Positions 1-45,476 of a stretch of DNA of 45,476 nucleotides are shown piece by piece. Location: sequence record PQ429079.1; one strand, written 5' to 3'. The stretch is from Escherichia phage vB_VIPECOTPH05A. Both the position numbers and the translations under genes were made by a program. The notes below the pieces were generated by a model, which was not told the origin of the DNA, made no database searches, and saw nothing but the letters and a program-made list of their open reading frames with translations. Within the stretch, counting starts at the first letter, position 1, and every line of letters begins with the position of its first letter.

Positions 1-585
1 TCATTCCTCTACCTCACCCATGTTCGTTGTTACAATTTTACCTACAGGCTCCGCAACACTGAAAATAATCTCAGTCGGTGCCGTTTCTTCGGCGGATTCA
101 ACTGGTTTCTCTTTGCCAAGGCCAAGTTTCGCAGCGGCAAACGTAGCAGAGATACCTGCGGCCCCTGTCTCAGTGAAGTATGCCTCTTCCAATGCCTGTG
201 CTGTCTCATAGGCTTCGGCAAATGCGGGAATCTCACGCAGCCACAGCTTAATAATCGGGATAGTGACGCCGATGTGTAGGGCGAAGCGGGCCAGTGACGG
301 TGGCTTATCCTGAATCAGCGGGCGTTCGTCACCCTTAGACGTGGGCGCAAGTTCCCATGACGTGCGGTCGAAGAACTCGATTAACGCGTCGCAATAGTCC
401 GGGTCCCACAACGCGGCGGAATTACGGGACGATTGATAAAGGCTCTGTTTACCGCGCGGTCGTTTACGGCGACGGTTTGCGCTAACAGCTTCTTCATGTG
501 CAGCTTGCACCACCTCTGGCGATGGCTGCTTGAGTTTCAGCTTCATAGAATCCCCTTGCGTATGCGTCTGACCATCAGAGCGCAT
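1..585 (-). CDS. terS: terminase small subunit (putative)
   Basis: 194-aa ORF whose TGA stop sits at positions 1-3 and overlaps (ATGA) the start of the large-terminase ORF running off the other window edge; HTH-like segment PSLARFALHIGVTIPIIKLW; likely true start at internal Met (546..544) preceded by AAGGGGA RBS. Confidence 0.6.
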   Translation of the reverse strand: MRSDGQTHTQGDSMKLKLKQPSPEVVQAAHEEAVSANRRRKRPRGKQSLYQSSRNSAALWDPDYCDALIEFFDRTSWELAPTSKGDERPLIQDKPPSLARFALHIGVTIPIIKLWLREIPAFAEAYETAQALEEAYFTETGAAGISATFAAAKLGLGKEKPVESAEETAPTEIIFSVAEPVGKIVTTNMGEVEE

Positions 586-611
586 CAGACGCGCCCTACG
601 CGTCTAAAGGG

Positions 612-641
612 ATTATATAGGGGGATTGGGTGGGATGTACA
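612..641 (-). promoter_or_regulatory. sigma70-like promoter (TGTACA-N18-TATAAT) upstream of terS
   Basis: perfect TATAAT -10 on minus strand (612-617) with weak -35 (636-641), just downstream of a hairpin. Confidence 0.3.
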
Positions 642-644
642 GAA

Positions 645-664
645 AAGCCCTCCGTAGAGGGCTT
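645..664 (-). terminator. putative hairpin terminator
   Basis: stem AAGCCCTC/GAGGGCTT with 4-nt loop; flanking U-tract is weak. Confidence 0.3.
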
Positions 665-2562: not shown

Positions 2563-2655
2563 TCAACGGCCTTTCAACCCGTCAAAGCATCCCCAGAAGG
2601 CCCCAACCACCGCGCCAGCACCGATAGCCAATAAGATGAAATCAATCTCTGTCAT
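2563..2655 (-). CDS. 30-aa hydrophobic peptide (possible lysis accessory)
   Basis: MTEIDFILLAIGAGAVVGAFWGCFDGLKGR; start overlaps endolysin stop (ATGA); below ORF-track size cutoff. Confidence 0.3.
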   Translation of the reverse strand: MTEIDFILLAIGAGAVVGAFWGCFDGLKGR

Positions 2656-3137
2656 TTAACAGCCCTCCCGATAGCAACCGCCTCTTGCCACGGTTTACCG
2701 TCGAACAGTGCCAGACGCCCGGCGGTACGTCGGCGCAGTCCAAGTAACGGTTTACCATTCTGGTTGATGAACAGTGCCAGCTTAGCCCGTAGCGTCTGCG
2801 CATCACCAGCGCGCAGCGCCTTACCCGTTCCGGTAGTAGCTGCGATTACGCCAGCGCCCGCGTTAAACACCAGGTCGCACACCGCATCGAACTGACCCTG
2901 CGTCAGCGAGTGATGCGCTGCGGCGTCAACGGCAGATACGGCCTTAGCCATGTCACGATTGAGTAACAGGAGGCCCTGACCTGGCGTGATGGTCTGCCCT
3001 GGCTTAACATCAGCACCGTAATGCCCGTAGCCTATAGTCAGGTACTTCTCGTCCGGCGTAGCGCGATACGCAGTTCCGCGGAAGCCCTCGAACGCAGCGC
3101 AGAAATGCAGTCCATTATCTGAAATATTTCGAGACAC
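2652..3137 (-). CDS. endolysin, GH24 (T4/lambda-type) lysozyme
   Basis: catalytic pattern E..D..T in FEGFRGTAYRATPDEKYLTIGYGHY; likely GTG start at 3137 with GGAGG RBS 8 nt upstream; ORF track gives 2652..3188. Confidence 0.8.
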   Translation of the reverse strand: MSRNISDNGLHFCAAFEGFRGTAYRATPDEKYLTIGYGHYGADVKPGQTITPGQGLLLLNRDMAKAVSAVDAAAHHSLTQGQFDAVCDLVFNAGAGVIAATTGTGKALRAGDAQTLRAKLALFINQNGKPLLGLRRRTAGRLALFDGKPWQEAVAIGRAVK

Positions 3138-3387
3138 GCTTATGTCCTCCGTACGACAGCCACGCCTGACGAATCTGGCGCAGCGCAACTAATGTGATTA
3201 ATGTCTCAGGCAACGCAGGCGACATGCTGCCCTGTAACAGGTGGATACATCCGGCGGCGCAAACGATAGCTGTCAGGATATAGAGCACCCGACCAAATAG
3301 CCCGTCGTCCACACTGGGGTGGTATACGTTAAACAGCGATGCGCCCTCAATTGCGAGCATACCGCCAAACCAGAATAATTCATTCAT
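3115..3387 (-). CDS. holin/antiholin-like membrane protein
   Basis: ORF 3115..3480; start MNELFWFGGMLAIEG at 3387 with GGAGGTGG RBS; two hydrophobic segments; overlaps both neighbours. Confidence 0.5.
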   Translation of the reverse strand: MNELFWFGGMLAIEGASLFNVYHPSVDDGLFGRVLYILTAIVCAAGCIHLLQGSMSPALPETLITLVALRQIRQAWLSYGGHKRVSKYFR

Positions 3388-3688
3388 TACCACCTCCGCG
3401 ACGTGCGATGTATTCTCCGGCGACAATGCCAGAGAGACGGGAATAAATCGGCATCCAGAGAATAGCAATGATGAACCCAAGGCCTGCTATTTCGCGTTCA
3501 CCTGCGATACCGAACCATTGAGCGGCAAGAGGTGCACCGAATACGGCGCACGCAAATCCAGTGGCGAGAAAACAGAGAGCATCGACAGGACCAGTAATAG
3601 TGGCTTTGTGTTGTCGTAAGCCTATTACCCCGCCAGCTAGTGAGGCAGCCAGAAGCCAGCCCGTCACTGTTTCAGTAAATTTATCCAA
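3380..3688 (-). CDS. holin-like membrane protein
   Basis: 102 aa with three hydrophobic helices (WLLAASLAGGVIGL, FLATGFACAVFGAPLAA, GLGFIIAILWMPIY); immediately upstream of endolysin. Confidence 0.55.
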   Translation of the reverse strand: MDKFTETVTGWLLAASLAGGVIGLRQHKATITGPVDALCFLATGFACAVFGAPLAAQWFGIAGEREIAGLGFIIAILWMPIYSRLSGIVAGEYIARRGGGNE

Positions 3689-7826: not shown

Positions 7827-7851
7827 TCATCTGTCTCGTTTCGATAAGTGA

Positions 7852-7880
7852 ATAGTATCCTATTATGTTGGGGCGTGCAA
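7852..7880 (-). promoter_or_regulatory. sigma70-like promoter (TTGCAC-N17-TACTAT), leftward
   Basis: -35 at 7875-7880 and -10 at 7852-7857 on minus strand. Confidence 0.5.
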
Positions 7881-8251
7881 GAGAATAGTTACGTTGCCGT
7901 TGTGATTCTTCAGGTAGGGTTGTGCCTTTATTCTTATTACTTGGTAACTAAAGGGCAGGCCCTAAGCCTGCCCAATAATCGTTACATTTTTACGGTTGCG
8001 AATCTACGGCACATTAAGAAAATCAGATACTTAAGAGATATGCCGCCGATGAGAATATAGCTTGCCCAGGGCAACCGGAGATACTTAGGAAGGAAAGTTA
8101 CAATAATTCTCGTGTTCAGTAAGCCTGCTGCTTAACCCTTTGCTTAACGCACGGGTTAAGCATTCTTACAAGGTGAACAGGAATCAAAGTAACTAAGATA
8201 TAGAAGCATCTTAAACGAAGATTTTCATAATGTCAATAGGTGCAATTATGT

Positions 8252-8280
8252 TTGATTTCCCATTATTCGCAATGTATACT
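8252..8280 (+). promoter_or_regulatory. sigma70-like promoter (TTGATT-N17-TATACT), rightward
   Basis: in AT-rich divergent intergenic region 8061-8311; drives the plus-strand replication operon. Confidence 0.45.
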
Positions 8281-8311
8281 TTGTTTCGTTAACTGATAAT
8301 GGGGTTTGAGA

Positions 8312-8482
8312 ATGACGCAGAATGAGGTAGCTGAGCGCATCGGGGTTACCCGTCGCACGCTGAATAACTGGTTAAAGAGTGGGAAGTTCCCGGATTGTTG
8401 TATTCGCATTATGGGCCGTCGTCAGCCAGGTACGTTTGACCCGGAGAAAGTGGAAGCGTGGATTAAGGAGAATGTAAAATGA
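8312..8482 (+). CDS. small HTH DNA-binding protein (56 aa)
   Basis: MTQNEVAERIGVTRRTLNNWLKSGKFP is a clear helix-turn-helix; below ORF-track cutoff; stop overlaps next start (ATGA). Confidence 0.55.
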   Translation: MTQNEVAERIGVTRRTLNNWLKSGKFPDCCIRIMGRRQPGTFDPEKVEAWIKENVK

Positions 8483-8712
8483 CCGAGTTTCAGTCCCGCG
8501 TATTTACGGCTGTAGTTTCGTTAACGCGTAAAAAAGGGTCGTGCAGCGTTATGGACTTGCGCCGTAGTTATTTTAAGTACTATAGTTCCGCCATTATTGA
8601 AGGGTCGTTGAAGGTACTGGTTAAATCGGGTGTCGTGAAAAACGTTGGTGGGAAATATAGTGCTGTTGCTGAAGTTCGCGGAATGGCTGCTACTTTAGAA
8701 GACCTGGAATAA
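8479..8712 (+). CDS. hypothetical protein with acidic C-terminal tail ...LEDLE
   Basis: 77-aa ORF; C-terminus ends LEDLE like the primase/helicase-like protein and the exonuclease. Confidence 0.5.
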   Translation: MTEFQSRVFTAVVSLTRKKGSCSVMDLRRSYFKYYSSAIIEGSLKVLVKSGVVKNVGGKYSAVAEVRGMAATLEDLE

Positions 8713-8770
8713 AAGAAAGCCCCGACGCGGTGAACGCCGAGGCCAAATTACTTGCTGAAGGAAATACAAC

Positions 8771-11038
8771 ATGTCCGATGTAATTTTATCCTACTCGTGG
8801 TCACGTCGCAACGCGCGGGCGGAGAAAAAGGATATAAACGTCAGAACCACACACACGGCAACACTGGACGACCTGAAAGAGCTAATCCAGCCGCTCTATG
8901 CCGTTCGTGACGGGATTAACCCTAAGACCGCACCGGGGTATATCACCGCCGCGTGCGATTTGACACACAGCACCGTAAAAGACCCGGAAACCGGCGACTT
9001 TAAGCAAGCGCGTAAAGGCTTTTTCTATCGCTGCGACGCGTCTGTAAGCAAATCGTCGCTGGCGTACCTGGACTTCGACAGCGCAACACCGGAAGAGTAT
9101 CAGGAAGCTGTGCGCCTGGTTAAGCGCAGCCGCCTGGCTATGTGCCTCTACACCACGGCATCCCATACCGATGAGTCACCACGCTTTCGCGTCGTCATGC
9201 CGCTGGGCCGCCCGGTTGAAGGCGGAGACATCATCCGTGTTCGCCATGGATTGCTGGAACACTTCTTCAAAGGCATGGGCGCGGACCGCAGCGGTTTCAC
9301 TCTGTCGCAGCCTATGTACCTGCCGCCGGTTGGCTCTACCGTTATCTGGTCGCGCCGAAACGACCTGATTGACCCGGAAGAGTTACTGGAAGGCATCCCG
9401 GATTACGAGGTGAGCAGCGCATCTGACTACCAGATACCAGAAGAACTGCGTACCGCGTTTACTGATGCGTTTGAGGCGCTGGCGTTTGAGTACGGCGGTG
9501 TTATGACGCCCCGCGGCCTTAAGATGCCAGCTACGCCGGAACATGCAGAAAATTACAGCGACCCTACGCCGCGCCCGGACGACTTCCTGCTGTGCTTCCC
9601 GCGCGAGGGCTACGAAGCGCCGAACGTAACCATGATCCACGACACTGACATTACGGCAACCGAAGGCATGTCGCCGAAAGAGGTGTGGAAATATGCGTGC
9701 GATGCGACCGGGCTTCCGTTCAGTGAAGTTGCAGAGGCAATCGGTTGGGGTACGCGTGGGTCAGTTTCATGCAGCCTGGACGACCTGGAAGACGATGAGG
9801 ACTCAGAGGAGGGCGAGCTACCGGAACCGGTAAAGGCTGATTTCGTCGTTGAAGGGTACATGCCGTCGGATTGTATCTGGGATATCGTCGGGGAATCTGG
9901 CACGTACAAATCGTTCTATACGCTGGGGATGATGTATCTCAGCGCCGCCGGATACCGGTTTGCGGGGGCGGATACCCAGCGTTGCCATCACTTCTATATT
10001 GATGGTGAGGGTGGCGCGGCCACACGTACGCGTATTGACGCGCTCGCGGCTAAATACGGTGCGGAAGGTAAAGATTACGTACACGTCATCGATATGGGTG
10101 AAGTCGGCAAACTGAAAAGCCTGATTAAGTTGATGCGTGAAACTGCGGGCGATGAACCTATCGGCATGGTCGCGTTCGACACCCTTAACCAGACCCTGGC
10201 CCTGACGATTGATAAGTTTGACGAGAACAGTTCATCAACGGCAATCGGTATGGGTAAAGTTATCGCCATCCTGAAAGAAGTGCGTGACGCAACTAAAGCC
10301 GCGGTGGGCGTCGTTCACCATACGCCGAAGGGGGGAAAGAAAGCCCGTGGTAGTGGCGCTCTGTATGCGGGGGTCGATGTGGAACTGACAATCGAACGCG
10401 CCACCGACCGACAGATAAACGTATATCACTCGAAATTCAAGCACGGGCCTCAGCAGAAGACGGTTGGCATGGTACTGGAGTCTGTACAGTTCCGCGAAGC
10501 ACCACCTCCGAAAGAGTACCGCGCGGTTGAGTTCGTCGGTAACACAGAGGAATACGGCGCAATCGTAAACCTGGACCTGCCTGAGCCGCACAAGGCGCTT
10601 GTGCTGATGCCGTGGGGCTTCGAGCCGTTCAAAACTGACGAGGAGAAAGAGCGGGAAGAAGGGCTGACAAAAGAAGGTAAAGAAAACGTACGTAAAACCG
10701 TAGAGAACGCAGTCAATAGTTCAGAAGCCACGATACTTGCCGCGTTTGAACTGGCGGAAGGAACCTACAACGGCAACGAAGGTATCACGGTAGCCGCAGC
10801 GAATAAGCTGGCACGGTCCGACCCTAACGCGAAGGCGTTTAACTCCAAAGAAGCCATAGAACGCGGGAAGATTAAGAAAATGGTTGAGGCGGGGTATCTT
10901 GTGCCAGGGACCGACGAAAACAATCAGATAATACCTGGCCGCTACAGGCTTAACACCAGGATAACGGATAACAAGATTCCGAAGACAATATACGAGCCGA
11001 ATGAGATGCTGGTGGTGACAGAGGAGGATTTGGAATAG
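8771..11038 (+). CDS. primase/helicase-like replication protein (RecA-like AAA ATPase domain)
   Basis: 755 aa; Walker A GESGTYKS, Walker B-like MVAFD, arginine-finger region; N-terminal primase-like region; ends EEDLE. Confidence 0.65.
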   Translation: MSDVILSYSWSRRNARAEKKDINVRTTHTATLDDLKELIQPLYAVRDGINPKTAPGYITAACDLTHSTVKDPETGDFKQARKGFFYRCDASVSKSSLAYLDFDSATPEEYQEAVRLVKRSRLAMCLYTTASHTDESPRFRVVMPLGRPVEGGDIIRVRHGLLEHFFKGMGADRSGFTLSQPMYLPPVGSTVIWSRRNDLIDPEELLEGIPDYEVSSASDYQIPEELRTAFTDAFEALAFEYGGVMTPRGLKMPATPEHAENYSDPTPRPDDFLLCFPREGYEAPNVTMIHDTDITATEGMSPKEVWKYACDATGLPFSEVAEAIGWGTRGSVSCSLDDLEDDEDSEEGELPEPVKADFVVEGYMPSDCIWDIVGESGTYKSFYTLGMMYLSAAGYRFAGADTQRCHHFYIDGEGGAATRTRIDALAAKYGAEGKDYVHVIDMGEVGKLKSLIKLMRETAGDEPIGMVAFDTLNQTLALTIDKFDENSSSTAIGMGKVIAILKEVRDATKAAVGVVHHTPKGGKKARGSGALYAGVDVELTIERATDRQINVYHSKFKHGPQQKTVGMVLESVQFREAPPPKEYRAVEFVGNTEEYGAIVNLDLPEPHKALVLMPWGFEPFKTDEEKEREEGLTKEGKENVRKTVENAVNSSEATILAAFELAEGTYNGNEGITVAAANKLARSDPNAKAFNSKEAIERGKIKKMVEAGYLVPGTDENNQIIPGRYRLNTRITDNKIPKTIYEPNEMLVVTEEDLE

Positions 11039-11041
11039 GTA

Positions 11042-11066
11042 AAAAGAAAGGGGCGTTAAGCCCCTT
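11042..11066 (-). terminator. hairpin terminator between convergent genes
   Basis: stem AAGGGGC/GCCCCTT; U-run on minus-strand side only. Confidence 0.4.
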
Positions 11067-11271: not shown

Positions 11272-11335
11272 GCCAGTTACTCCTTAGTTAGTTGATATGT
11301 GAATAGTACCATATTAATTATTTTAGAAAAGCCCA

Positions 11336-14353: not shown

Positions 14354-14357
14354 AGTG

Positions 14358-34617: not shown

Positions 34618-34619
34618 AT

Positions 34620-35428: not shown

Positions 35429-35784
35429 TTTCTCACCTGAATAAAATACGCCACGACATCATCGTTAACCATCTTCTTCTCGATACCTACGACAGACCAT
35501 TGCTCGCCGCCGAATTGTACCTTGTCTTCCATCTTCGGTACGACGCTGCAATCGGCTTTAACAATCACGTCTCCCGCCTGAATCGTCGTACCGTTCACCA
35601 GTCCTGCGTTAACAGGAACCGGAACAGCTTTCAACGGCAGCACTTCATCCGCGGACCGGACATACTCCCCGAGAACTTCATCCCACACTTTCGAGCCAGC
35701 GCGAACAAGAGATACCGTGCTACCGAATTTGGTTAGCAGGCGTGTACCGACGCCTTGCATACGTTTACTGAAAGCGGTGCTCAT
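35425..35784 (-). CDS. head closure / head-tail adaptor protein (putative)
   Basis: ORF 35425..35865; likely start MSTAFSK at 35784 with AAGAGGTG RBS. Confidence 0.45.
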   Translation of the reverse strand: MSTAFSKRMQGVGTRLLTKFGSTVSLVRAGSKVWDEVLGEYVRSADEVLPLKAVPVPVNAGLVNGTTIQAGDVIVKADCSVVPKMEDKVQFGGEQWSVVGIEKKMVNDDVVAYFIQVRK

Positions 35785-35878
35785 TTTAGCACCTCTTGCA
35801 GCGTCAAAAGAACACCGTAACTGTGCAAGGCTACCGCGGTAAGAAAACCAAAAACTACACCACATGTGAACTTATTCA

Positions 35879-36493
35879 TCAGGCGGCCTCCAGTCTCGAA
35901 ATAACCAATAGCGCGGACGGCGCTGTACCCCATGCAGTTACGGTAGCGGCTTGTGGGTATACGCCGCCGAAGTTACTCCCGGCGCTATCCCGCATAATCT
36001 GAACGGCAAACGTCTGGCCTGCGGTCGGGTTAATAGCAACACGAGACTCAATAGGAATTGTAGTATCCGCGCTTACCAGTTTCGTAGCGGCTGGCGAGCC
36101 GTATTGTGCGCCATTAACCACAATACGCGATAGCAAGATAGAGGTTCCGCTAGCACCAGTGCGGCCTGCCTGTAACTTGATGCGAACGGCGTAGTTACCC
36201 GCGGTGTTGAACGTAACCGACCCCGCAGCATTAATCATTACCGGGTCAGATGCACTACCCTGAGCAGAGCCGAACGATACCTGCAACGCCGTATCTACTG
36301 CGGTAGGCGCTTGCGCTACTGTCGACGCAGCGCGGAGAACTTCAACCTCTTTAACACCCGGAGTGGCGTAAATAGGTGAGTCAGCCATCTGGGTTAATAC
36401 CCCGCGCAACTTCGCAGGCGTAATAAGTCCGGTCGTGTTGTCCGGTAGCTCGGAACCGATTAGCGTGAATATCTCTGATTTAGTCTTCGCCAT
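35879..36493 (-). CDS. hypothetical structural protein
   Basis: 204-aa Ala/Thr/Gly-rich protein in the head-neck region. Confidence 0.45.
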   Translation of the reverse strand: MAKTKSEIFTLIGSELPDNTTGLITPAKLRGVLTQMADSPIYATPGVKEVEVLRAASTVAQAPTAVDTALQVSFGSAQGSASDPVMINAAGSVTFNTAGNYAVRIKLQAGRTGASGTSILLSRIVVNGAQYGSPAATKLVSADTTIPIESRVAINPTAGQTFAVQIMRDSAGSNFGGVYPQAATVTAWGTAPSALLVISRLEAA

Positions 36494-36495
36494 TT

Positions 36496-37008
36496 TTAAC
36501 CCCGGTACACGTTAAACGAGAAACCATTGTTAAGACCACCACACAATAACGGGCGTAAAGCGTCGTCAGCAGCGGTAATCGCGGTCGTAGCGCCACTGTT
36601 GCCATTGTTGAAGTAGGTCACTGTTACCGCACCCTCGACACGCTCAGTCTGCACGGCGCGGCCGTCTGAGTTAGCCCGGACTTCGGTGCCCTCGCCATAT
36701 GTAGCGGCAGCGATTACCTGCGCAAGAATCACCTGTTTCGGAATGGCGTTGTTGGCCACCGGGAACCCGTTTAACGTAACGCCGGTGCGGGGGTATGCAA
36801 GAGACTGTTCGGCGGATACTCGACGACCGCACATCTGCGGTTCTGCAAGCCCTACATAAGTAGCACCGTTGCGTAAGGCCACCTCTGCTGCGGTATCGTC
36901 TTCCGGCAGCTCAAGGCCATAATTAGCCGCTAACGCGCGGGCGTCAGCCAGACTAATGTAACTGTCGGCATTTGGGACGATCACCCCAGTTTCCACGATT
37001 AGCGGCAT
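36496..37008 (-). CDS. head-tail connector protein (gp6-like, putative)
   Basis: 170-aa ORF downstream of capsid cluster (gene order). Confidence 0.45.
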   Translation of the reverse strand: MPLIVETGVIVPNADSYISLADARALAANYGLELPEDDTAAEVALRNGATYVGLAEPQMCGRRVSAEQSLAYPRTGVTLNGFPVANNAIPKQVILAQVIAAATYGEGTEVRANSDGRAVQTERVEGAVTVTYFNNGNSGATTAITAADDALRPLLCGGLNNGFSFNVYRG

Positions 37009-37227
37009 AAATTATTCCTCTGACTTACGGCGACGACGCTTAGTACCACCGCCGTTGTTGTGCGCTTCTTCGTTGTCCGGTTGAGCCGCAACCAGTTCAT
37101 CCGCTTCTACAACACCGCGAACCGGCATTACCTGACCGTCAACAACATCAACGTGGGTGTATTTTTCGCGGATTACATAATTATCTGCCATGACCTTTCC
37201 TTATTACGGCCCCGAAGGGCCGTCGCA

Positions 37228-37581
37228 TTAAGACACAGTTGCTACAGTGCTGCTGGAGATAATATTACCATATACATCCTGAACAACCACTTTATACGTA
37301 CCAGAATCGGTAGATGCGACAGTGGTAGATTTGGTGTACGTAGCTGCGGTAGCGCCTGCGATGGCGTTGTTATCCTTGAACCACTGATAGGAGTACGGTT
37401 CGGCCCCGCCGGTTACCGCAACGGTCAGGGTCAATGCCGCGGGTGCGGTAACAGCGGTAGTAGCCGCCAGCACGGAAGAGAAAGATGCTGGAGAAATATT
37501 CTCCATATCGATTTCTACCTGCCCATCAGCAGGAGAATCATCAGACACACCTACAATACGACGTTTGATTACATCAACCAT
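37228..37581 (-). CDS. Ig-like domain protein (possible capsid decoration)
   Basis: YSYQWFKDNNAIAGATAATYTKSTTVASTDSGTYKVVVQD looks like a bacterial Ig-like domain. Confidence 0.5.
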   Translation of the reverse strand: MVDVIKRRIVGVSDDSPADGQVEIDMENISPASFSSVLAATTAVTAPAALTLTVAVTGGAEPYSYQWFKDNNAIAGATAATYTKSTTVASTDSGTYKVVVQDVYGNIISSSTVATVS

Positions 37582-37591
37582 TTTAATCCCC

Positions 37592-37846
37592 TTATGATTC
37601 GATTACACCAGCGGCGCGGAGTTGCGCCAGAAGTGCGTTTAGTTTAGTGCCTACGGCGTTAACCGCAGTCTGTGCGGACGTAGCAACCGCGGCGGCGTCT
37701 TCACCCGTAACGGTTTGCGAGCCGATATTGGTTACCGCAGCACCTTTCTTAACCAGTCCAGCGGTTTCTGCCGTTGTGTCAGGCACAACACTACTGAAAT
37801 CGGTGTTCTCAAGGCTGCGAGGCAAGCCTTTTCCGGTCTTAGCCAT
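37592..37846 (-). CDS. hypothetical protein
   Basis: 84-aa ORF directly downstream of the capsid terminator. Confidence 0.4.
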   Translation of the reverse strand: MAKTGKGLPRSLENTDFSSVVPDTTAETAGLVKKGAAVTNIGSQTVTGEDAAAVATSAQTAVNAVGTKLNALLAQLRAAGVIES

Positions 37847-37855
37847 AATTTACCT

Positions 37856-37889
37856 CTTAGTAAAAGAAAAGAGGGACCGAAGTCCCTCT
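37856..37889 (-). terminator. rho-independent terminator downstream of capsid gene
   Basis: stem AGAGGGAC/GTCCCTCT followed on minus strand by UUUCUUUUAC. Confidence 0.6.
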
Positions 37890-37905
37890 CGATTATAGCT
37901 TAACC

Positions 37906-38955
37906 TTAAGCACCGACACCAGTTACCAGGAAGGCAATCGGTACATGCTTACGCTCAACAACGCGGTTCCAGTTGGAGGCGTTCGCCAGGTCCTGCCATG
38001 AAGCAGAACGTGCGACGGTCTCGGTGCCGTTACCGGTGATTACTGCGCTGGTAAAGCTGTAGCCCAGTGGGTGCAGCAACCAGGTCTTACGGGTCCACAG
38101 GGTTTCTACCCCACCGCCGTTGCCGCGAGACGCTTCGCGCTCGTATTCCAACGGGTTGGACGGAGAACCTTCACCGTAACCGATAGCGCCGTTACCGAAG
38201 ATAATGGAGATGAACTTACGGCTAGAGTCGGTGCTGACTACGGTCATGCTGTCGTCAACAATCACGCGGTAACCCTGGTAGGTGGCGAACAGTGTGTCGT
38301 TGTCGGCGTCTTTGATGAAGTCAATAAGCTGCTGCTTACGGGCCTGCGCATAAACGAAGCTGTGCATCGCGATAGCACCCAGCACTTCTCCGCCGTTGCC
38401 CATCAGCGCATCACCCATAGTCTGGGTGGCGTCGATGAACGCACCTGCGTCGAAGCCCAGAGTAGCAGACACGTCTACAACCATGTCATTCTGCTCGTGG
38501 TATGCGTCGGTAGCGGCTACGTTGTCATTGTACAGACCGAGCGCGGTAGCGATCAGACGGCGTTGCGCCTGGCGCTGCCAGAAGTTATCCAGACGGGACG
38601 CTACGGATTGCAGCGGGTTCTGGCTGGTCAGTTCGACAGTCAGGTCCGCCTGGCCAAAACCTTCGTTCAGGTATGCAACGCGCGCCATCATCTCGCCGGT
38701 TTGCACGTTACGCGGGGTAGCGATGTCCTGGTATACGTCGTTCGAGTAGTTAGGCTCGATAGAAGTATCAATCGCTTTCCAGAAAGGAATGTTAGCGACG
38801 TTGGACGGGCCGCGGGCAATCTCGGCGGCGTACGGAGTAGGGGTAAGAATACCGGACTGGAAGAACGCGGTTTTTTCTACCGGGTCCTCGGTCATATAAG
38901 ACGCCAGGACCGGGATGTTGCCAGTTACGATATCGCCGATAGTGGTAATTGCCAT
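37906..38955 (-). CDS. major capsid protein
   Basis: 349-aa protein immediately after the scaffold gene and followed by a strong terminator. Confidence 0.7.
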   Translation of the reverse strand: MAITTIGDIVTGNIPVLASYMTEDPVEKTAFFQSGILTPTPYAAEIARGPSNVANIPFWKAIDTSIEPNYSNDVYQDIATPRNVQTGEMMARVAYLNEGFGQADLTVELTSQNPLQSVASRLDNFWQRQAQRRLIATALGLYNDNVAATDAYHEQNDMVVDVSATLGFDAGAFIDATQTMGDALMGNGGEVLGAIAMHSFVYAQARKQQLIDFIKDADNDTLFATYQGYRVIVDDSMTVVSTDSSRKFISIIFGNGAIGYGEGSPSNPLEYEREASRGNGGGVETLWTRKTWLLHPLGYSFTSAVITGNGTETVARSASWQDLANASNWNRVVERKHVPIAFLVTGVGA

Positions 38956-38957
38956 TA

Positions 38958-39659
38958 TTATTTCCTCAGGGCTTTAAGTTGCCGTTCAAATTCGGCAGGG
39001 TTCGATTTATACAGAGCTAAACGCTCCGCTTCACTCATGTCTTTAAACGCTGGTGCGGCCCCGCCGCCTTTGCCACCGGAAGCCCCGCCGCCGGAAGCTG
39101 CATTTGCTTTAATCAAATGCGAAAACGCTTTGTGTTCGCGCAGGTATTTGCGGAACTGTTCAGGGTCAGTCGTGATTACACCGCCGTCTGGCCCAACAAA
39201 CTTAGTAACCACATCATCACCTTCGAACTCAGTCTTAACGAACGGAGCAAGAATGTCTACTGCTTCCGGGGTAATAAAGTCACCTGCGAAAGAGCCTAAC
39301 ACCGCTTTACGTTCGCTGCCGAGGATGCGCTCAGCCATTTTGGTTATGCGACCATCTTTCTCGGCTAACACCGGGTCATACTGGCTACGAATCGTCTTTT
39401 CGAACTCGTCCATCTTGCCGGCGGCTTTTAGCGCCTCCTGGTGCGCACGCTGACGTTCCTCTTCGGCCTCTTTTGCTTTACGGGCGGCTTCTTTCTTCTC
39501 CGCCAGCAATGCTTCCTGATTGGCCTTAAGTCCGGCAACTTCTTTCTCAATCATCGCCTGAACTTCTTCAGCGGTGAACATTTTTGGAGCGTCGCCACCG
39601 CTAGATTTATCTTCTGCCCCAGCTTCTTCCTGGAACGGATAGTGTAAAAAACGATTCAT
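38958..39659 (-). CDS. scaffolding protein
   Basis: ORF 38958..39713; likely start MNRFLHY at 39659; long Ala/Glu/Lys coiled-coil and Gly-rich C-terminus. Confidence 0.6.
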   Translation of the reverse strand: MNRFLHYPFQEEAGAEDKSSGGDAPKMFTAEEVQAMIEKEVAGLKANQEALLAEKKEAARKAKEAEEERQRAHQEALKAAGKMDEFEKTIRSQYDPVLAEKDGRITKMAERILGSERKAVLGSFAGDFITPEAVDILAPFVKTEFEGDDVVTKFVGPDGGVITTDPEQFRKYLREHKAFSHLIKANAASGGGASGGKGGGAAPAFKDMSEAERLALYKSNPAEFERQLKALRK

Positions 39660-39741
39660 AGTCAGTATGTCCCCTGGACGTTGGAATCCGGGCCTCCCGG
39701 ATTTACATGTCAAGAATAAATTATTCCAACATGCAAGGCAA

Positions 39742-40005
39742 CTATTCCAGAATATTCCTCACGTAATCCTGCAACATGAACACTTTCAGTCTCAGTTGCC
39801 GTACACATTCGGCGTTCTGAACGTCGATAGCTAAATCCTCGTCTGCGTCGCTACTTGGCAGTGCCAGTTTGCACGGCGGCTGCATCATCGGCATACCCGG
39901 GGATGGAATTGGCGTTTGCGACGGCGCGGGACTTGAGCTGCACCCGCTCAGGGTCAAAAGTGCACACGCTGCGGCCAGGCGTTTTAATGTACTTAACGAC
40001 TTCAC
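39742..40005 (-). CDS. outer-membrane spanin lipoprotein (Rz1-like)
   Basis: lipobox LTLSGC, Pro-rich mature region; overlaps Rz-like gene in another frame. Confidence 0.6.
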   Translation of the reverse strand: MKSLSTLKRLAAACALLTLSGCSSSPAPSQTPIPSPGMPMMQPPCKLALPSSDADEDLAIDVQNAECVRQLRLKVFMLQDYVRNILE

Positions 40006-40237
40006 GGGTTATCACCTCTGATTTCGTTTTGCCTTCGTTGTCAGCGGCGGCGGCCTTTGATTCATCCTGCTGCTGCCGTTGTGTTTTCTTCGCGAACTCA
40101 GCCTGTGCTTTCTGCTGTTGCTGCGAAACGAGATTAGCACGGCCTTCACCCCAGCCGCTGCGGTATTGATAGATGCCGTGTGCGTAGGCCAGGACGACGA
40201 AACATGCTCCGGCTACGACAGTTGCTTTAAGATTCAT
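39851..40237 (-). CDS. inner-membrane spanin (Rz-like)
   Basis: N-terminal TMD ATVVAGACFVVLAYA followed by Gln/Ala/Lys-rich predicted helix. Confidence 0.6.
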   Translation of the reverse strand: MNLKATVVAGACFVVLAYAHGIYQYRSGWGEGRANLVSQQQQKAQAEFAKKTQRQQQDESKAAAADNEGKTKSEVITREVVKYIKTPGRSVCTFDPERVQLKSRAVANANSIPGYADDAAAVQTGTAK

Positions 40238-41137: not shown

Positions 41138-41166
41138 TAAGGCCCCATATGGGGCCTTTTATCATT
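41138..41166. terminator. bidirectional rho-independent terminator
   Basis: stem AAGGCCCC/GGGGCCTT with T4 run. Confidence 0.7.
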
Positions 41167-41623
41167 CTGGTTTAGAGACCTTCGCCGCTTTGCTTACGGC
41201 CTCTGCACCATCGGCATCGGTAACTTTAACGAAGTATTCGCCCGCCGCATTAACCGTCAGAGACAGCGCCTCTTCAGGGGCATTTACCACTTCCTTCCCG
41301 TCTTTGTACCAGGTCAGTACATACGGCGCTTTACCCGCCTTAACTTCGACGGTGATGGTGGCGCTACCGTCGACCAGCTCGGTGTCTTTCGGCTGCACAG
41401 AGAAATACACATCACCAGCGTCCGCCAGATACGGAATCTCATAAAGCATACCCGCCGCGGGTAACGCAATACCGGTTTTATCTGCAAATGGCATATCATC
41501 CACTGGTGTACCGAGTACACTTTCATCTCCAATAAACACCACGTTCTCGCCGGAACCAGACACTCGGGCGTACTGGACTACTCGACGTGACGGTACATCA
41601 GTTACTTTGAAAAAGCCCATCAT
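41162..41623 (-). CDS. Ig-like domain protein (putative structural/decoration)
   Basis: C-terminal PYVLTWYKDGKEVVNAPEEALSLTVNAAGEYFVKVTD resembles an Ig-like domain. Confidence 0.45.
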   Translation of the reverse strand: MMGFFKVTDVPSRRVVQYARVSGSGENVVFIGDESVLGTPVDDMPFADKTGIALPAAGMLYEIPYLADAGDVYFSVQPKDTELVDGSATITVEVKAGKAPYVLTWYKDGKEVVNAPEEALSLTVNAAGEYFVKVTDADGAEAVSKAAKVSKPE

Positions 41624-42699
41624 TATTCCCCTTTCAGATAATCAGCAACACGTTTATCGAGTTCCGCCATCTGCTTAAGCGTGAGCGGATTCCCGAAACC
41701 ATCTACAGATATTACGCGAAACTCTTCCGGCGATATACCGCTGTTACGGAAAATCTTACCGCGGGTCGGCCCGAGTGCTTCGTCCACGAACCACGCCGGT
41801 TGTTGTTCCAGGAACTCGTAGTAAGTGGTGTCTGCGCTTACCTGAGTACCTCCGTCCGCGCCCTTAGCCGCACGTTTTGCACCTTTATCGAGGAAGTCGA
41901 ACTCTGAACTGATTACAGGTGCCGTGGTACTTCGGCACCCAAAATGGGCCGGGGGTATCGGCCCCTTACCGATTTCCCACGTCATTCCGTCTCTGGCCCT
42001 ACAAATCGTACTGGTACGGCTGTCTAGCGTTGACACCCACTCGTACTTCTCGATGATGTCGTCGTTCTGGCGGTACGTCTCGTTACGGGCCTCGTTGGAT
42101 ACATGAGACAGCGCGGTGCGGATTACCGTAGCTGCGTTACGCTCGGAGATGTCCGCCAAACCACCAGCACCAACAACATTCTTAACAATCTGCCGTGTTG
42201 TCTTACCCTGAACAAAGCCCATCTTAACGCCGGTTACGAGACGTGCTACTTCGGTTTCGCCCCATCCCGACATCAGCTTAGTGAAATCAACAGGCTTGTC
42301 GCTTAATGATAAGGGTTGAAACTCGGCAGCGGACCACACCTGTTCGGCGGTAGGCGTAACAAATTCCGCATCTACGTTGGTGGTCAGTGTCTTTACATTC
42401 CACTCGGCCTCATACGCCGCCAGTTCCATAAGGTCTTCTGTCAGCTTTGTTTGCCAGTCACCGGTAAGCGCGGTAAGTGCTTCTTCAAGGTCGCGTAACA
42501 GTTTATTCAGTCGCGCGGTGCTTCGCCCGTCGTCGCCGAATAACAGCACCTGCCGTTTTATTTCGTCCCGCATCTCCTTAATGAACGGCGCGAGGTCTTT
42601 CACCTCACCGGATGCAGTGCGTTGCAGCCATATCTGGTGGCTGATTAGAGATGTAAGTAAGCTCATAGATAAACCCTGTGGCGCTAAAGTTAATAGCAT
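41623..42699 (-). CDS. head morphogenesis protein (SPP1 gp7 / Mu F-like)
   Basis: WVSTLDSRTSTICRARDGMTWEIGKGPIPPAHFGCRSTT fits that family; real start may be Met at 42666. Confidence 0.65.
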   Translation of the reverse strand: MLLTLAPQGLSMSLLTSLISHQIWLQRTASGEVKDLAPFIKEMRDEIKRQVLLFGDDGRSTARLNKLLRDLEEALTALTGDWQTKLTEDLMELAAYEAEWNVKTLTTNVDAEFVTPTAEQVWSAAEFQPLSLSDKPVDFTKLMSGWGETEVARLVTGVKMGFVQGKTTRQIVKNVVGAGGLADISERNAATVIRTALSHVSNEARNETYRQNDDIIEKYEWVSTLDSRTSTICRARDGMTWEIGKGPIPPAHFGCRSTTAPVISSEFDFLDKGAKRAAKGADGGTQVSADTTYYEFLEQQPAWFVDEALGPTRGKIFRNSGISPEEFRVISVDGFGNPLTLKQMAELDKRVADYLKGE

Positions 42700-42735
42700 A
42701 CTATAAGAAAGCCCCTTTCGGGGCTATATGTGAAC

Positions 42736-44217
42736 TTACTGCTGAGTGACATCTTGTTGCTGCGCCGACTGCGGAATCTCTCCTGCCACCTGAGTAACCG
42801 CACCTAACGGCAGAGGTGCGCCCTCAATAGCGTTCTGAATATCCTCGTCGGTCCAGTCAGTCACCCCTGCTTTACGCAACGCGGAGTAGTATGCGGTCGC
42901 TGGCAGCAGACCGGCATTAATGTCCGCCATCCACTGAGCGCGGTCCTGAGCGGTCATCGGTTGCAGGAAGAACTCCATGTTAAGTTTGAACTCAATCTCT
43001 GTGCCTTCACGCAACCCTAGCATCGCAGCCACCCAGCGCAACGCATCGGTATACGCCATGCTTACGTTACGTGCGATTGTCGCCATAACGGACGTGTCAG
43101 CACCACGTTGCAGGCGGGCCGATTCAGCGGTGATTTGCTGCGTCGGGGTGATAAGCTGCGCACCAATCTGGATGGCCTGATTCTCTTTATCCAGCATGTT
43201 CTGCTTGGCCAGGTTATTCTCTCCGGCCTGGACCAGAAACGCATTGCCGCCGTAGCCGATGTTATGACCTGAACGCGACCCCATGCGCACACCGTGTGGG
43301 TTAGCCTCTTTCCACTGTTCCATGCTCATGTTCTCACCCGGGGCGATGAACAGAGTTGGCTGACCTACAACGAAGCTGGATTCCTCATTGTCTGCGCTGT
43401 TGCGGAAATGCCCGATATTAAGCTCGGCCAACGGCAGCAAAGGCGCATCGTCAATGGTCGCGTCGTTATTGCTTGCGCCGATAAACGTGAACGGGATTTT
43501 GCCGCGCAACTGTTCGCCAAGTTCCGGGAATATTTCGATTACTTCATCCTGGGCACCACCTTCGGCATCGAAGCGGTAAATGCGCTGGCGGTAGCGCCCA
43601 TCAATCAGGTCAAGGACGCGGTATTGCTCGCCGAACTTTGTTTCGAACTCTGCACCAGGTTCTGAGTATTCCCATATCTCACGTAATACAACCATCGTCA
43701 CGCGGTTCACTGAACCGACGCGAGCCAGTCGCCAGTTGATGATGTTCTCCGCGGTATAGAATGCGATGACCGGGTTTAATAGCCCTGCGTTCTGCTCGGC
43801 TGCCGTTGCTGCAGCTGTCTCAGGGGCATCCACCAGCAACCCGCCGCGGCCCACCGAATCAATCTCCATCAGCGTATCCTGCGCGTGCTGCCACAGCCCG
43901 ACACCGGAACCGTCGGCATTACGTAACAGGTACTCAAGTTCAGGCGGGATAATCTGCTCTGGGTCTTTGCACATCACTGACCCAACCATCCCCGCCAGGG
44001 TACGTTTGGTGAAGTTGTAGCAGATAGCGCCGTTCTCGTATTCTTCCTGGCGCTGGTCTGCGTATTTCTGGTCTGGCTCATTCTTCCCGACATTTCGAAG
44101 ATAGCGAATAAGGTCGCCTTCCAGCGCGTGGCGCACCTTCTGCCATTTATTGAAGTGATGCAGCCATTCCCGGTGTTTTGTCTTAACACCCTGATTCTGA
44201 CCGTTCATAGTTAACAT
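42736..44217 (-). CDS. portal protein
   Basis: 493-aa protein between large terminase and head morphogenesis genes. Confidence 0.7.
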   Translation of the reverse strand: MLTMNGQNQGVKTKHREWLHHFNKWQKVRHALEGDLIRYLRNVGKNEPDQKYADQRQEEYENGAICYNFTKRTLAGMVGSVMCKDPEQIIPPELEYLLRNADGSGVGLWQHAQDTLMEIDSVGRGGLLVDAPETAAATAAEQNAGLLNPVIAFYTAENIINWRLARVGSVNRVTMVVLREIWEYSEPGAEFETKFGEQYRVLDLIDGRYRQRIYRFDAEGGAQDEVIEIFPELGEQLRGKIPFTFIGASNNDATIDDAPLLPLAELNIGHFRNSADNEESSFVVGQPTLFIAPGENMSMEQWKEANPHGVRMGSRSGHNIGYGGNAFLVQAGENNLAKQNMLDKENQAIQIGAQLITPTQQITAESARLQRGADTSVMATIARNVSMAYTDALRWVAAMLGLREGTEIEFKLNMEFFLQPMTAQDRAQWMADINAGLLPATAYYSALRKAGVTDWTDEDIQNAIEGAPLPLGAVTQVAGEIPQSAQQQDVTQQ

Positions 44218-44229
44218 TGAATAATCCTC

Positions 44230-45476
44230 TTAAAGTGCGAAAGTTACCGGGATGTTGATTACTGGTTTAACCACCGGCATCTCATAAACTACAGGATAGC
44301 CGAGAGCATCCGCCATATGGTCAATGACGCCGTCTTTAGCAGGCTCTCCGTTATCATCATATGCCTGCTGCTCCAGCGTCTTCGCTATCTCAGGGCATAA
44401 GTGGTCGTTAACCCACAGCTTACCTTTTTCCAGCGCGGTATTCACGGCTAAAACACGGTCTTTAACCGGTGGGTTGGCGGATTTAGCGCGAACATCAAAA
44501 CCAGCCTGCTGTAGTAAGGCGATATCGGAGATTGATGCTGAGTTGGTTTTGCGGTTCTTGCCGCTGGCGTCCGGGTAAACGACGATGCGGTGGCCTTGCG
44601 ACTTCCACTTCTCGGTAATCACACGCACGGTATCTGGCGTATCGAACAGGCCCTTCAGTTCTGCTACCGCGTGCCAGCCGTCTTTACGTTGCACATACAC
44701 GGCGCTGGCGTTCTTCGTAACGTTGAAGTCCTGCCCGATGTACAGCGTGTCGCCCGGTTGGATTGTCTCTTTGCTGCGATGCTTACGTCGGTCGTAGGCG
44801 TAGTATACGCTGCCGGATGTCAGGTTAACGAACTCCCCATTCAGGTACGCGTTAATCAGTTGCGCTGGGTAAGTCTCGGTCAGCGAGCTAATGTAGTCAG
44901 GCGGCAGGAATCGCGCGTTCTCGTGGGTGGAAGCCTGCACCATTGAGTAACTCGGTGTCGGGTTCTCTTTGAACTTGGCGTAGACGAACTTGAACCCTTC
45001 CGGCGTCGTGGTGACGGAGATGTGGTTGGTTACACCAGGGATAACCAGACGCATACGGGCGACGATTTTGTTCCATGCCAGTTCAGCTTTTTCTCGGCTC
45101 AGTACGTCCAGTTCATCCACGACCGCGGCGGCGATTTTGAAACCCACAATCGAACCGGGGTTATCCATAGAACGACAGATAACCGTTCCGAGCACCGTCT
45201 TACCGCGAGTAACCACGACCTCTTTGTCTCCGGATTTAACCAGCACATCAAGGCCGAGCAGGTTAGCCGCTTCCTCGAATGTCGGGTAGAAGATGTCACG
45301 GATGGCGGGATAGGTGGGGCCGAAGTAGCCCAGGCGCGTACCGGGATGCTTGAGCATAAACGTAAGCAGGTCAAGGCAGCCGACAAACGTCTTGCCACTA
45401 CCGAAGCCGCCTACGTAGGCCTTGTATTTGTTGTCACAATTCAGGAACAGTGCCTGCGGCGCGGATAGCTGAATAC
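44230..45476 (-). CDS. terL: terminase large subunit (5' end at/through window edge)
   Basis: Walker A YVGGFGSGKTF near the window end; frame stays open to the edge and, if circular, joins an ATG at positions 4..2. Confidence 0.8.
   Translation of the reverse strand, partial: IQLSAPQALFLNCDNKYKAYVGGFGSGKTFVGCLDLLTFMLKHPGTRLGYFGPTYPAIRDIFYPTFEEAANLLGLDVLVKSGDKEVVVTRGKTVLGTVICRSMDNPGSIVGFKIAAAVVDELDVLSREKAELAWNKIVARMRLVIPGVTNHISVTTTPEGFKFVYAKFKENPTPSYSMVQASTHENARFLPPDYISSLTETYPAQLINAYLNGEFVNLTSGSVYYAYDRRKHRSKETIQPGDTLYIGQDFNVTKNASAVYVQRKDGWHAVAELKGLFDTPDTVRVITEKWKSQGHRIVVYPDASGKNRKTNSASISDIALLQQAGFDVRAKSANPPVKDRVLAVNTALEKGKLWVNDHLCPEIAKTLEQQAYDDNGEPAKDGVIDHMADALGYPVVYEMPVVKPVINIPVTFAL

Follow-up and report, generated by a model that had tools for sequence, protein, structure and literature searches.

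Escherichia phage vB_VIPECOTPH05A: a unit-length Kagunavirus genome opened at the junction of its terminase genes

The 45,476-nt sequence of Escherichia phage vB_VIPECOTPH05A (GenBank PQ429079.1), analysed over its entire length and referred to here as the window, very probably represents one full genome length of a virulent E. coli siphophage in the genus Kagunavirus. The record gives it as a circular map, opened at an arbitrary position dictated by annotation, directly behind the terS stop codon on the minus strand. An earlier note, made from the letters of the sequence alone, had taken the window for one complete phage genome with adjacent ends. This is borne out by the join, contiguous in dozens of independent relatives, by colinearity around the full circle and by the lack of duplication.

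The window begins with TCATTCCTCT (positions 1..10) and its last letters are ...GATAGCTGAATAC; across the joined ends (1 to 45476), the minus strand reads ...GAGGTAGAGGAATGA followed directly by GTATTCAGCTATCC.... As the note had claimed, the terS stop codon (TGA at 3..1, minus strand) lies at the very edge of the window, and an ATG at 4..2 opens a terL reading frame that continues in frame into position 45476. The joined ORF, which begins with MSIQLSAPQALFLNCDNKYKAYVGGFGSGKTF and stops at 44230 on the minus strand, specifies 416 amino acids. TerL is split across the window ends because the opening point falls inside the ATGA overlap of terL with terS. The same 4-nt overlap occurs in Bas73, fEg-Eco19, Jersey and 10 metagenome contigs, and its arrangement suggests that the two genes may be translationally coupled. 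When the window is read as a linear molecule, all that remains of terL is a 375-aa remnant (44230..45357) that starts at the internal Met42 and lacks the Walker A motif. The full ATPase and nuclease domains (Terminase_6N, residues 22-226, with Walker A GGFGSGKT at residues 24-31; Terminase_6C, residues 248-395) are present only after the ends are joined.

The joined TerL is identical (416/416) to the TerL of phage vB_Ec_DUEC01, where the gene is contiguous, and shares 99.76% identity with that of Bas73 and 98.6% with that of Snoke. At the nucleotide level, the joined 1200 nt gave a single full-length alignment in 41 phage records, over record spans of 1196-1203 nt. Directly behind terS, the same 416-aa gene is found on 10 metagenome/SRA contigs whose TerS is identical. 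The join with 70 nt on either side is 100% identical and ungapped in seven of eight aligned independent metagenome/SRA contigs, an exact 40-mer spanning it is found in three IMG/VR genomes (43.7-44.6 kb), and GAGGAATGAGTATTCAG, the sequence at the join, stays unchanged even in Jersey. The adjacency of the window ends is real, far beyond chance.

The TerS protein itself is 98.5% identical in amino acids to that of MC04 and 96.4% to that of Bas73; an identical protein is encoded on at least 24 public contigs, and a Pfam search with TerS matched no family. Its translation start is more plausibly Met14 (position 546) than the ATG at 585, since an AAGGGG Shine-Dalgarno sequence precedes the former and both the Jersey annotation and the PHROG match start there.

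The genus boundary by ICTV convention lies at about 70% nucleotide similarity over the genome. Expressed as identity times aligned fraction, the similarity of the window is 0.81 to MC04, 0.73 to fEg-Eco19 and 0.71 to Bas73, and 0.52 to Jersey of the genus Jerseyvirus; the best 25 nucleotide matches are all Escherichia phages or Kagunavirus records. Kagunavirus genomes typically measure about 41-46 kb, with about 50% G+C and neither tRNA genes nor an integrase. The architecture of the window agrees: terS, terL, portal, head, tail and tailspike genes follow each other on one strand and the replication genes lie on the other, there is no tRNA gene, and the genes map onto those of the relatives. 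By both similarity and architecture, the window belongs to Kagunavirus (Guernseyvirinae). With 0.81 similarity to the nearest record (collection dated August 2025), the phage would qualify as a new species.

MC04 (vB_VIPECOMC04, PQ423993.1, Kagunavirus, 45,658 bp) has the same gene order and strands as the window, with 93-95% identity over about 85-87% of it. Its record starts and ends at the same base, its terL is likewise split, and the remnant is labelled as a 375-aa “hypothetical protein”. The tailspike and the J-like protein are 97.6% and 99.8% identical in amino acids. Unlike the window, MC04 carries genes for a DNA methyltransferase, for a homing endonuclease (located between portal and terL), for an HNH protein (within the spanin locus) and for superinfection immunity; of the two, only the window has the helicase intein. 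The two also differ in their alleles of tape measure and chaperones (48-55% amino acid identity); that tblastn missed the MC04 tape measure was an artefact of compositional statistics, a match at 49% identity appearing once these were switched off. Bas73 (GertrudWoker, PQ850603.1), whose circular record begins with the start of terS, has a tape measure protein and chaperones with 98-100% identity to those of the window, and its terS (1-585) and terL (582-1832) agree with the window in length and overlap. The Bas73 tailspike, in contrast, is only 34% identical, over its N-terminal part, and Bas73 has a methyltransferase and lacks the helicase intein, the reverse of the window. Snoke, Shashou and Sciku (MK931441, MK931440, MK931439) have the window's type of terminase and about 87% nucleotide identity at the terS-terL junction, which places them farther from the window overall; Snoke harbours its intein in the head morphogenesis gene instead of the helicase gene. 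Jersey (NC_021777.1), the type member of the sister genus Jerseyvirus, shares the module order and the terS/terL overlap, but it is a Salmonella phage and has a homing endonuclease gene between terL and portal that the window does not have.

The features of the window are listed in Table 1; gene roles were assigned by profile matches and by mapping onto annotated relatives.

Table 1. Features of the window, in order of position (aa, amino acids).
Feature	Position	Strand	Module or remarks
terL, first 4 bases (ATGA)	1..4	-	ATG overlaps the terS stop codon
terS (small terminase)	1..585	-	194 aa from the ATG at 585; phrog_3064 “terminase”, E 1e-72
Endolysin	2652-3137	-	Lysis cassette 2652..3688
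Two holins	3380-3688, 3115-3387	-	Lysis cassette
Small HTH proteins	within 7848..21777	+	Replication/recombination module 7848..21777
Helicase-primase	8771-11038	+	Replication/recombination module
HTH regulator, 71 aa	11056-11271	-	Inside replication/recombination module
PD-(D/E)XK exonuclease	13112-14353	+	Replication/recombination module
gp2.5-like annealing protein	14442-15068	+	Replication/recombination module
Two HNH endonucleases	about 15123-15596, about 17834-18301	+	Replication/recombination module
Family A DNA polymerase	15589-17787	+	Replication/recombination module
VRR-NUC resolvase	18666-18950	+	Replication/recombination module
SNF2 helicase with intein	19178-21643	+	Replication/recombination module
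Intein, LAGLIDADG homing endonuclease	19277..20317	+	347 aa; within the Walker A motif of the SNF2 helicase (GSGK/T)
Tailspike	21808-24144	-	Tail module 21808..31151; Peptidase_S74 chaperone domain
J-like central tail protein	24157-26703	-	Tail module
Distal and minor tail proteins	26694-28068	-	Tail module
Tape measure protein	28068-30380	-	Tail module
Tail assembly chaperones	30373-31151	-	Tail module
Plus-strand island in structural region	31184..33256	+	Small genes; 376-aa DNA repair exonuclease at 31709-32839
388-aa protein	33451-34617	-	Block 33451..40237; labelled “minor tail protein” in MC04 and Bas73
Head-tail adaptor, neck proteins, tail terminator	within 33451..40237	-	Block 33451..40237
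Head fibre and Ig-like decoration proteins	37228-37846	-	Block 33451..40237
Major capsid protein	37906-38955	-	Block 33451..40237
Scaffold	38958-39659	-	Block 33451..40237
Spanins Rz/Rz1	39742-40237	-	Block 33451..40237
Hoc-like decoration protein	41162-41623	-	Head assembly block 41162..44217
Mu F-like head morphogenesis protein	41623-42699	-	Head assembly block
Portal	42736-44217	-	Head assembly block; DUF4055
terL (large terminase), remainder	44230..45476	-	416 aa together with bases 4..1

The plus-strand island amid the structural genes is also present in Bas73, MC04, fEg-Eco19 and Jersey, and the 388-aa protein at 33451-34617 is probably the tail tube. That all expected modules occur exactly once, as the note had it, is correct for the essential modules; it does not extend to the two HNH genes and the intein-borne LAGLIDADG endonuclease, nor to the lysis genes, which lie at two sites (holins and endolysin at 2.6-3.7 kb, spanins at 39.7-40.2 kb) in the window as in all relatives. 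The boundaries of the intein (Cys1...His-Asn/Thr) were taken from an alignment with the intein-free, 474-aa helicase of MC04, which matches both flanks of the insert. Judged by its sequence, the insert has the hallmarks of a class 1 intein: Cys1, a C-terminal His-Asn, Thr at +1, a Hint domain and a colinear intein-free allele. Profile searches matched Hom_end_hint (E 2e-21) and LAGLIDADG_3 (E 7e-7), and the identity to the inteins annotated in Shashou and Sciku is 100%.

A palindrome, AATAG-N4-CTATT, occurs in eight copies in the window (0.02 expected), seven of which are part of sigma-70-like promoters at the head of transcription units, and its copy number is conserved across Kagunavirus and Jerseyvirus genomes. 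It is conceivable, if rather unlikely, that the 71-aa HTH protein controls a genome-wide switch with the palindrome as its operator; if true, this would be a temporal programme governed by a single repressor, not yet described for Guernseyvirinae.

The term “circularly closed” in the note applies to the sequence map; it does not apply to the packaged DNA, which PhageTerm calls on relatives indicate to be, most likely, linear, terminally redundant and circularly permuted, the product of pac/headful packaging. The check proposed in the note, for circular or terminally redundant ends, left room for this. Replication of the phage would generate concatemers. TerL, an ATPase-nuclease of the Terminase_6N/6C type, would be guided by TerS to a pac region and make the first cut there. 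Packaging would proceed by successive headfuls, and since each of these would slightly exceed one genome, the virion DNAs would acquire their redundant and permuted ends; short-read assemblies of such permuted DNA would then give a circle without fixed ends. From sequence reads, PhageTerm called pac/headful packaging for Snoke (PMC6776784), Shashou (PMC6776780) and Sciku (PMC6753286), the genomes of which were purposely opened before terS, and detected no termini in fBC-Eco01 (PMC9825357), while the BASEL Kagunavirus assemblies close into circles (PMC11990801). Our literature search found no paper on headful packaging and the terminase in Kagunavirus, or on circular permutation in Jerseyvirinae: the packaging evidence comes from genome announcements.

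Headful phages of the P22/Sf6 type resemble the window in that adjacent, overlapping TerS and TerL genes head the structural genes, and their assemblies lack fixed ends as do those of the window's type; Sf6 and P22 are podoviruses, whereas the window represents a siphovirus, with a putative headful mechanism and pac site. The window TerL matches Terminase_6N/6C and Terminase_3, and Sf6 gp2, unlike the HK97 protein, shares Terminase_6N and Terminase_3 with it; such families also occur outside headful phages, and membership in a Pfam family does not by itself fix the mode of packaging. Similarity between the window TerL and Sf6 gp2 is negligible in BLASTP (E=0.035, over the Walker A region only), and a sequence search with TerL against solved terminase structures returned nothing significant.

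A complete genome could also be packaged from cos sites with HK97-like 3′ cohesive ends, in which case all virions would contain one unique linear DNA, and the circle would reflect either replicative forms or cos ends that had been annealed or ligated. A published TerL tree places the terminases of JSSK01 and other “K1glikevirus” phages in the 3′-cos HK97 group, and its authors detected no terminal repeats in JSSK01 (PMC11641727). The window has roughly 85-190 nt of non-coding sequence upstream of terS, its size varying with the terS start codon and with the reality of a 33-aa ORF at 671-769. However, HK97 gp2 matches TerL_ATPase (PF03354) and TerL_nuclease (PF20441), neither of which the window TerL matches at E<=0.01, so that its assignment to the HK97-like 3′-cos terminase family was rejected, and BLASTP between the window and HK97 TerL proteins gave E=1.6. 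Three relatives with the same type of terminase were called pac/headful, and fBC-Eco01 showed no termini, although cos ends are normally conspicuous. Nor do the public records have a common natural start: apart from those sharing the window's first base, they begin with the first base of terS, with that of terL or in scattered places. The published TerL trees themselves conflict (PMC5582158 versus PMC11641727), and the read-based evidence on packaging is stronger than that of the trees. Overall, we regard cos packaging as improbable and retain pac/headful packaging as the most likely mode.

Completeness does not depend on the join alone. The note had asked for a comparison of length and gene order with related phages: the 45,476 bp fall within their range of 40.6-45.8 kb and the order is colinear. 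Once rotated, the window is colinear around the whole circle with Bas73 and, given that record's own opening point, with fEg-Eco19 too. The 144-154 ORFs conserved in four reference genomes are all present, except for a handful that are antisense, unannotated or partly matched. Within the window, we found no internal repeat longer than 36 nt that might betray a concatemer, no terminal direct repeat or assembler overlap of 8-399 nt, no 12-mer common to the first and the last 1 kb, no tRNA or tmRNA gene and no Rfam family at the gathering threshold. The G+C content is 50.9%, and the GC skew tracks the direction of transcription with no anomaly at the join. From full-circle colinearity, the presence of the conserved genes, the lack of long repeats and the lack of a match in E. 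coli genomes (below), we conclude that the window holds a single genome length of a virulent Kagunavirus.

That the window might not be whole, with sequence missing or extra at the join, or might be a chimeric or concatemeric assembly, could be raised on the grounds that no terminal overlap documents its circularisation. Such an origin is very improbable in view of the identical, ungapped join in seven independent contigs and its invariance out to Jersey, the complete identity of the joined TerL with the contiguous DUEC01 gene, the one-to-one colinearity with complete relatives and a set of conserved genes without duplications. A temperate element, either an excised prophage or a circular plasmid-prophage, would fit the circular map and a small HTH protein labelled “excisionase and transcriptional regulator” in relatives, but it has a negligible probability, given that nearly half of the genome (25001-45476) has no megablast match in 5,426 complete E. 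coli genomes, that no integrase, partition or plasmid replication gene is annotated in the four relatives onto which the window genes map, and that Kagunavirus is described as strictly lytic (PMC11641727, PMC11990801).

The opening point of the unit-length genome is an annotation convention, not a natural end. PQ423993.1 and PQ436005.1 share their opening base with the window, the first after the minus-strand terS. TerL has its best PHROG match in phrog_38319, which carries no name, while TerS falls in a family named “terminase”, and an automated pipeline would for this reason anchor on terS; it is our conjecture that a re-orientation step of the Pharokka type set the opening point.

At least one other record, PQ423993.1, has its terL damaged by this cut, and its shared coordinates imply the same for PQ436005.1. 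A curated version of the window would begin at the terS initiation codon (585 or 546, minus strand), with terL annotated as 416 aa. Its probable cause, PHROG-based annotation in which TerS is a “terminase” and TerL goes unrecognised, should be of use to curators and to developers of re-orientation tools. The oddities at the ends, namely an ORF that runs off the window and a “hypothetical” 375-aa terminase remnant without Walker A, are artefacts of the cut and not biology. The value of the result is mainly practical: the window can be used as a whole genome, so that what it lacks is truly absent, namely tRNA genes, a methyltransferase and, going by the annotated relatives onto which its genes map, an integrase. 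Biologically, the phage is an ordinary representative of a genus of virulent E. coli phages that has been sampled well.

The window begins with TCATTCCTCT and ends with ...GATAGCTGAATAC, being opened at the first base past the stop codon of the minus-strand terS. Read on that strand through the join of the two ends (...GAGGTAGAGGAATGA|GTATTCAGCTATCC...), the 194-aa TerS, with the C-terminus ...NMGEVEE and a PHROG match to the small subunit (phrog_3064 "terminase"), stops at a TGA at 3..1, directly upstream of TerL. The earlier note had terL start at an ATG spanning positions 4..2 and continue in frame across the ends, and this is confirmed: the joined ORF specifies 416 aa (N-terminus MSIQLSAPQALFLNCDNKYKAYVGGFGSGKTF), in which the Terminase_6N ATPase domain is complete (residues 22-226; E 3.5e-21) and is followed by the Terminase_6C nuclease domain (residues 248-395; E 4.4e-11). 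ORF calling on the linear window returns only a 375-aa remnant that starts at the internal Met42 and lacks the Walker A motif (GGFGSGKT; residues 24-31).

Judged from sequence comparisons, the join exceeds chance by a wide margin. The joined TerL is identical at 416 of 416 residues to the product of the contiguous gene of phage vB_Ec_DUEC01, and 99.3-99.5% identical to that of HSE2, fTaEco01 and phiEc4 and 98.6% to that of Snoke, while TerL of Escherichia phage GertrudWoker Bas73 (PQ850603.1; here Bas73) aligns at 99.76% identity in a single HSP spanning the join. A 1200-nt junction query (600 nt from each side), counted where at least 80% of its length aligned in one piece, aligns unbroken in 41 phage records, in many of which the junction is internal (e.g., fEg-Eco19, 5152-6351; BUCT789, 9755-10954; HSE2, 21329-22528); the spans in these records (1196-1203 nt) imply that the length at the join differs by a few bases at most. 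The identical TerS occurs on at least 24 metagenome/SRA contigs. Among the matches listed, 10 out of 10 contigs have a 416-aa Terminase_6N/6C gene next, overlapping the TerS gene by 4 nt, and each gives one megablast HSP (5.5-11.9 kb; 93.4-96.6% identity) straight across the join. Over the join ±70 nt, seven of the eight aligned contigs that carry the identical TerS are 100% identical and ungapped. An exact 40-mer spanning the join was found in three IMG/VR genomes (43.7-44.6 kb), and GAGGAATGAGTATTCAG at the join is unchanged even in Salmonella phage Jersey (NC_021777.1), from the sister genus Jerseyvirus.

The claim that the window is one complete, circularly closed phage genome with each expected module present exactly once is borne out, as regards the sequence map and the essential modules, by full-circle colinearity with relatives, the retention of conserved ORFs and the absence of duplication. 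Rotated to terS, the window is colinear end to end with the circular Bas73 record (23 blocks, monotonic), and colinearity also holds for fEg-Eco19, the alignment wrapping once where that record itself is opened. For each of four reference genomes (vB_VIPECOMC04, here MC04; Bas73; fEg-Eco19; Jersey), we defined a core set of stop-to-stop ORFs, each ≥60 aa long and conserved across the remaining three, amounting to 144-154 ORFs per reference, of which one or two have no window counterpart covering at least 50%. By coordinates, these are mostly antisense to annotated genes, e.g., around the helicase intein site and in the variable segment of the helicase-primase; the exceptions, matched only partially, are Bas73_0073 and an ORF that overlaps the 3′ end of fEg-Eco19 gp39, annotated in the fEg-Eco19 record only.

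Mapping of MC04 and Bas73 proteins located genes for packaging and the head (terS, terL, portal, Mu F-like head protein, decoration proteins, scaffold, major capsid protein, adaptor and neck proteins), the tail (tail terminator, probable tail tube protein, chaperones, tape measure protein, distal and minor tail proteins, J-like protein and tailspike), lysis (holins, endolysin and spanins) and replication and recombination (helicase-primase, exonuclease, annealing protein, DNA polymerase A, VRR-NUC resolvase, SNF2 helicase and RusA-like resolvase). Within the window, there are no repeats longer than 36 nt, no terminal direct repeat was found at its ends, no tRNA genes were found and an Rfam search gave zero matches; a megablast search of positions 25001-45476 against 5,426 complete E. 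coli genomes was negative, and the records of the four references annotate no integrase. On these negatives we reject both a prophage and a partial genome.

Coordinates of the features discussed
Feature	Position	Strand
terS	585 to 1	-
terL, joined across the ends	4..2 (ATG) to 44230 (end)	-
terL remnant in the linear window	44230..45357	-
ORF of 159 aa	1338-1817	-
HTH regulator gene	11056-11271	-
HNH gene	about 15123-15596	
HNH gene	about 17834-18301	
SNF2-type DNA helicase gene	19178-21643	+
Helicase intein	19277-20317	+
Tailspike gene	21808-24144	-
Tape measure protein and both chaperones	28068-31151	-
Palindromes, 14 nt each	6272, 7851, 11346, 12268, 14368, 18929, 31275, 40573	
GC-rich hairpin	33425-33454	
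GC-rich hairpin	41131-41160	
Accessory-gene absence, example sites	between 19175 and 19178; 44220-44229; 39938-39987	

The opening base and orientation of the window recur in MC04 (PQ423993.1) and vB_Eco_K-02 (PQ436005.1), where terL is likewise cut; the MC04 annotation lists the cut gene as a "hypothetical protein, phrog_38319" of 375 aa, without the Walker A motif. Other records were opened at the start of terS (Bas73, Jersey, fBC-Eco01, Sciku) or of terL (K1H, fTaEco01, phiEc4), and the remainder at scattered positions; thus, they have no natural end in common. The best PHROG match of TerL is the unnamed phrog_38319, and the label "terminase" falls to TerS, which is a likely cause of an opening point that cuts terL: we infer a Pharokka-style re-orientation anchored on the lower coordinate of the "terminase" feature. 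The "split terminase" is an artefact of how the map was linearised.

Given a complete genome, pac-type headful packaging is, by analogy with relatives, quite probable, and a circular map is what it would lead one to expect. TerS and TerL would initiate packaging on concatemers, from which headfuls slightly longer than one genome would be cut off; the virion DNA would be linear, terminally redundant and circularly permuted, and would assemble as a circle. PhageTerm analysis of reads called pac/headful packaging for Snoke (PMC6776784), with its 98.6% identical TerL, Shashou (PMC6776780) and Sciku (PMC6753286), and gave no obvious termini for fBC-Eco01 (PMC9825357). Assemblies of BASEL Kagunavirus phages are circles linearised at terS (PMC11990801), and a TerL tree places K1G, K1H and phages G, L and P beside headful packagers (PMC5582158). 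Cos ends (3′-cos, HK97-like) appear improbable for a complete genome: another tree groups "K1glikevirus" TerL with the 3′-cos HK97 (PMC11641727), but the window TerL matches, at E≤0.01, neither TerL_ATPase (PF03354) nor TerL_nuclease (PF20441), the two families that make up HK97 gp2, and BLASTP between the two proteins gives E=1.6. The window TerL matches Terminase_6N/6C and Terminase_3; the ATPase families Terminase_6N and Terminase_3, which also occur outside headful phages, are matched by Sf6 gp2, a proven headful enzyme, too.

TerL occurs in Guernseyvirinae as two alleles with ~54% identity between them. The type in the window occurs at ≥95% identity in 73 records of the phage collection, including Snoke, HSE2 and DUEC01, and the second in SETP3, SE2, XY2 and many Salmonella phages; their coexistence may be why published terminase trees conflict.

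The helicase gene specifies 821 aa instead of 474 aa and includes a 347-aa intein, already known (PMC6753286), with a double-motif LAGLIDADG homing endonuclease. Its insertion site is the helicase Walker A motif (GSGK|T), and its boundaries are canonical (Cys1, His-Asn, Thr+1). The inteins annotated in Shashou and Sciku have the same aa sequence (100% identity), SETP3 and further Salmonella Jerseyviruses carry versions that are 98.6-99% identical, and 171 records in total match it at ≥95%. Together with the more diverged helicase flanks (~89-97% identical at the aa level to MC04 and Bas73), this near-identity suggests recent homing across genera.

The palindrome AATAG-N4-CTATT occurs eight times in the window, versus 0.02 copies expected. 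Seven copies are embedded in sigma-70-like promoter sites (TTGACA-N17-TATAGT or TTGCAC-N17-TACTAT) that head transcription units; a conserved leader, AAACGAGAGGAGAGA, comes after several of the copies. Copy number is conserved in relatives, with 7-8 palindromes in MC04, Bas73 and fEg-Eco19 and four in Jersey, three of which correspond to annotated promoters. The palindrome is a candidate operator of the 71-aa HTH regulator. A GC-rich hairpin bordered by runs of A and T (AAAAGGCCCC-GTTA-GGGGCCTT...) is present in two copies, mutually 90% complementary; each lies between convergent genes and looks like a bidirectional intrinsic terminator.

The tail genes form a mosaic. For the tape measure protein and both chaperones, aa identity is 98-100% with Bas73 and just 48-55% with MC04, otherwise the closest phage, whereas the 778-aa tailspike, with its Peptidase_S74 chaperone domain, is 97.6% identical to that of MC04 and matches that of Bas73 in the N-terminal part only (34%). 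The 159-aa ORF spans two separate small MC04 genes (phrog_1402 and phrog_9023), with 69 nt without match between the two parts; a 158-aa gene called at the same place in a metagenome contig indicates that the fused form recurs. Compared with MC04 and Bas73, accessory genes of at least one close relative are missing: a DNA methyltransferase gene upstream of the helicase, a homing endonuclease gene between portal and terL, an HNH gene inside the spanin locus and a gene for superinfection immunity. The DNA polymerase gene is still flanked by two HNH genes.

Both halves of the window match hundreds of Guernseyvirinae phages, the top matches all being E. coli Kagunavirus phages of 40.6-45.8 kb. MC04 (45,658 bp) is the closest, with 93-95% identity across ~85% of the window; identity multiplied by aligned fraction is 0.81 for MC04, 0.73 for fEg-Eco19, 0.71 for Bas73 and 0.52 for Jersey, values by which we place the window in Kagunavirus. 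The usual phage species line is 95%, and the window falls under it when compared with a phage collection dated August 2025. The join, the gene content and the probable packaging mode are standard for Guernseyvirinae, and the genome is a new member of a well-sampled genus, with species-level divergence and mosaic tail genes.
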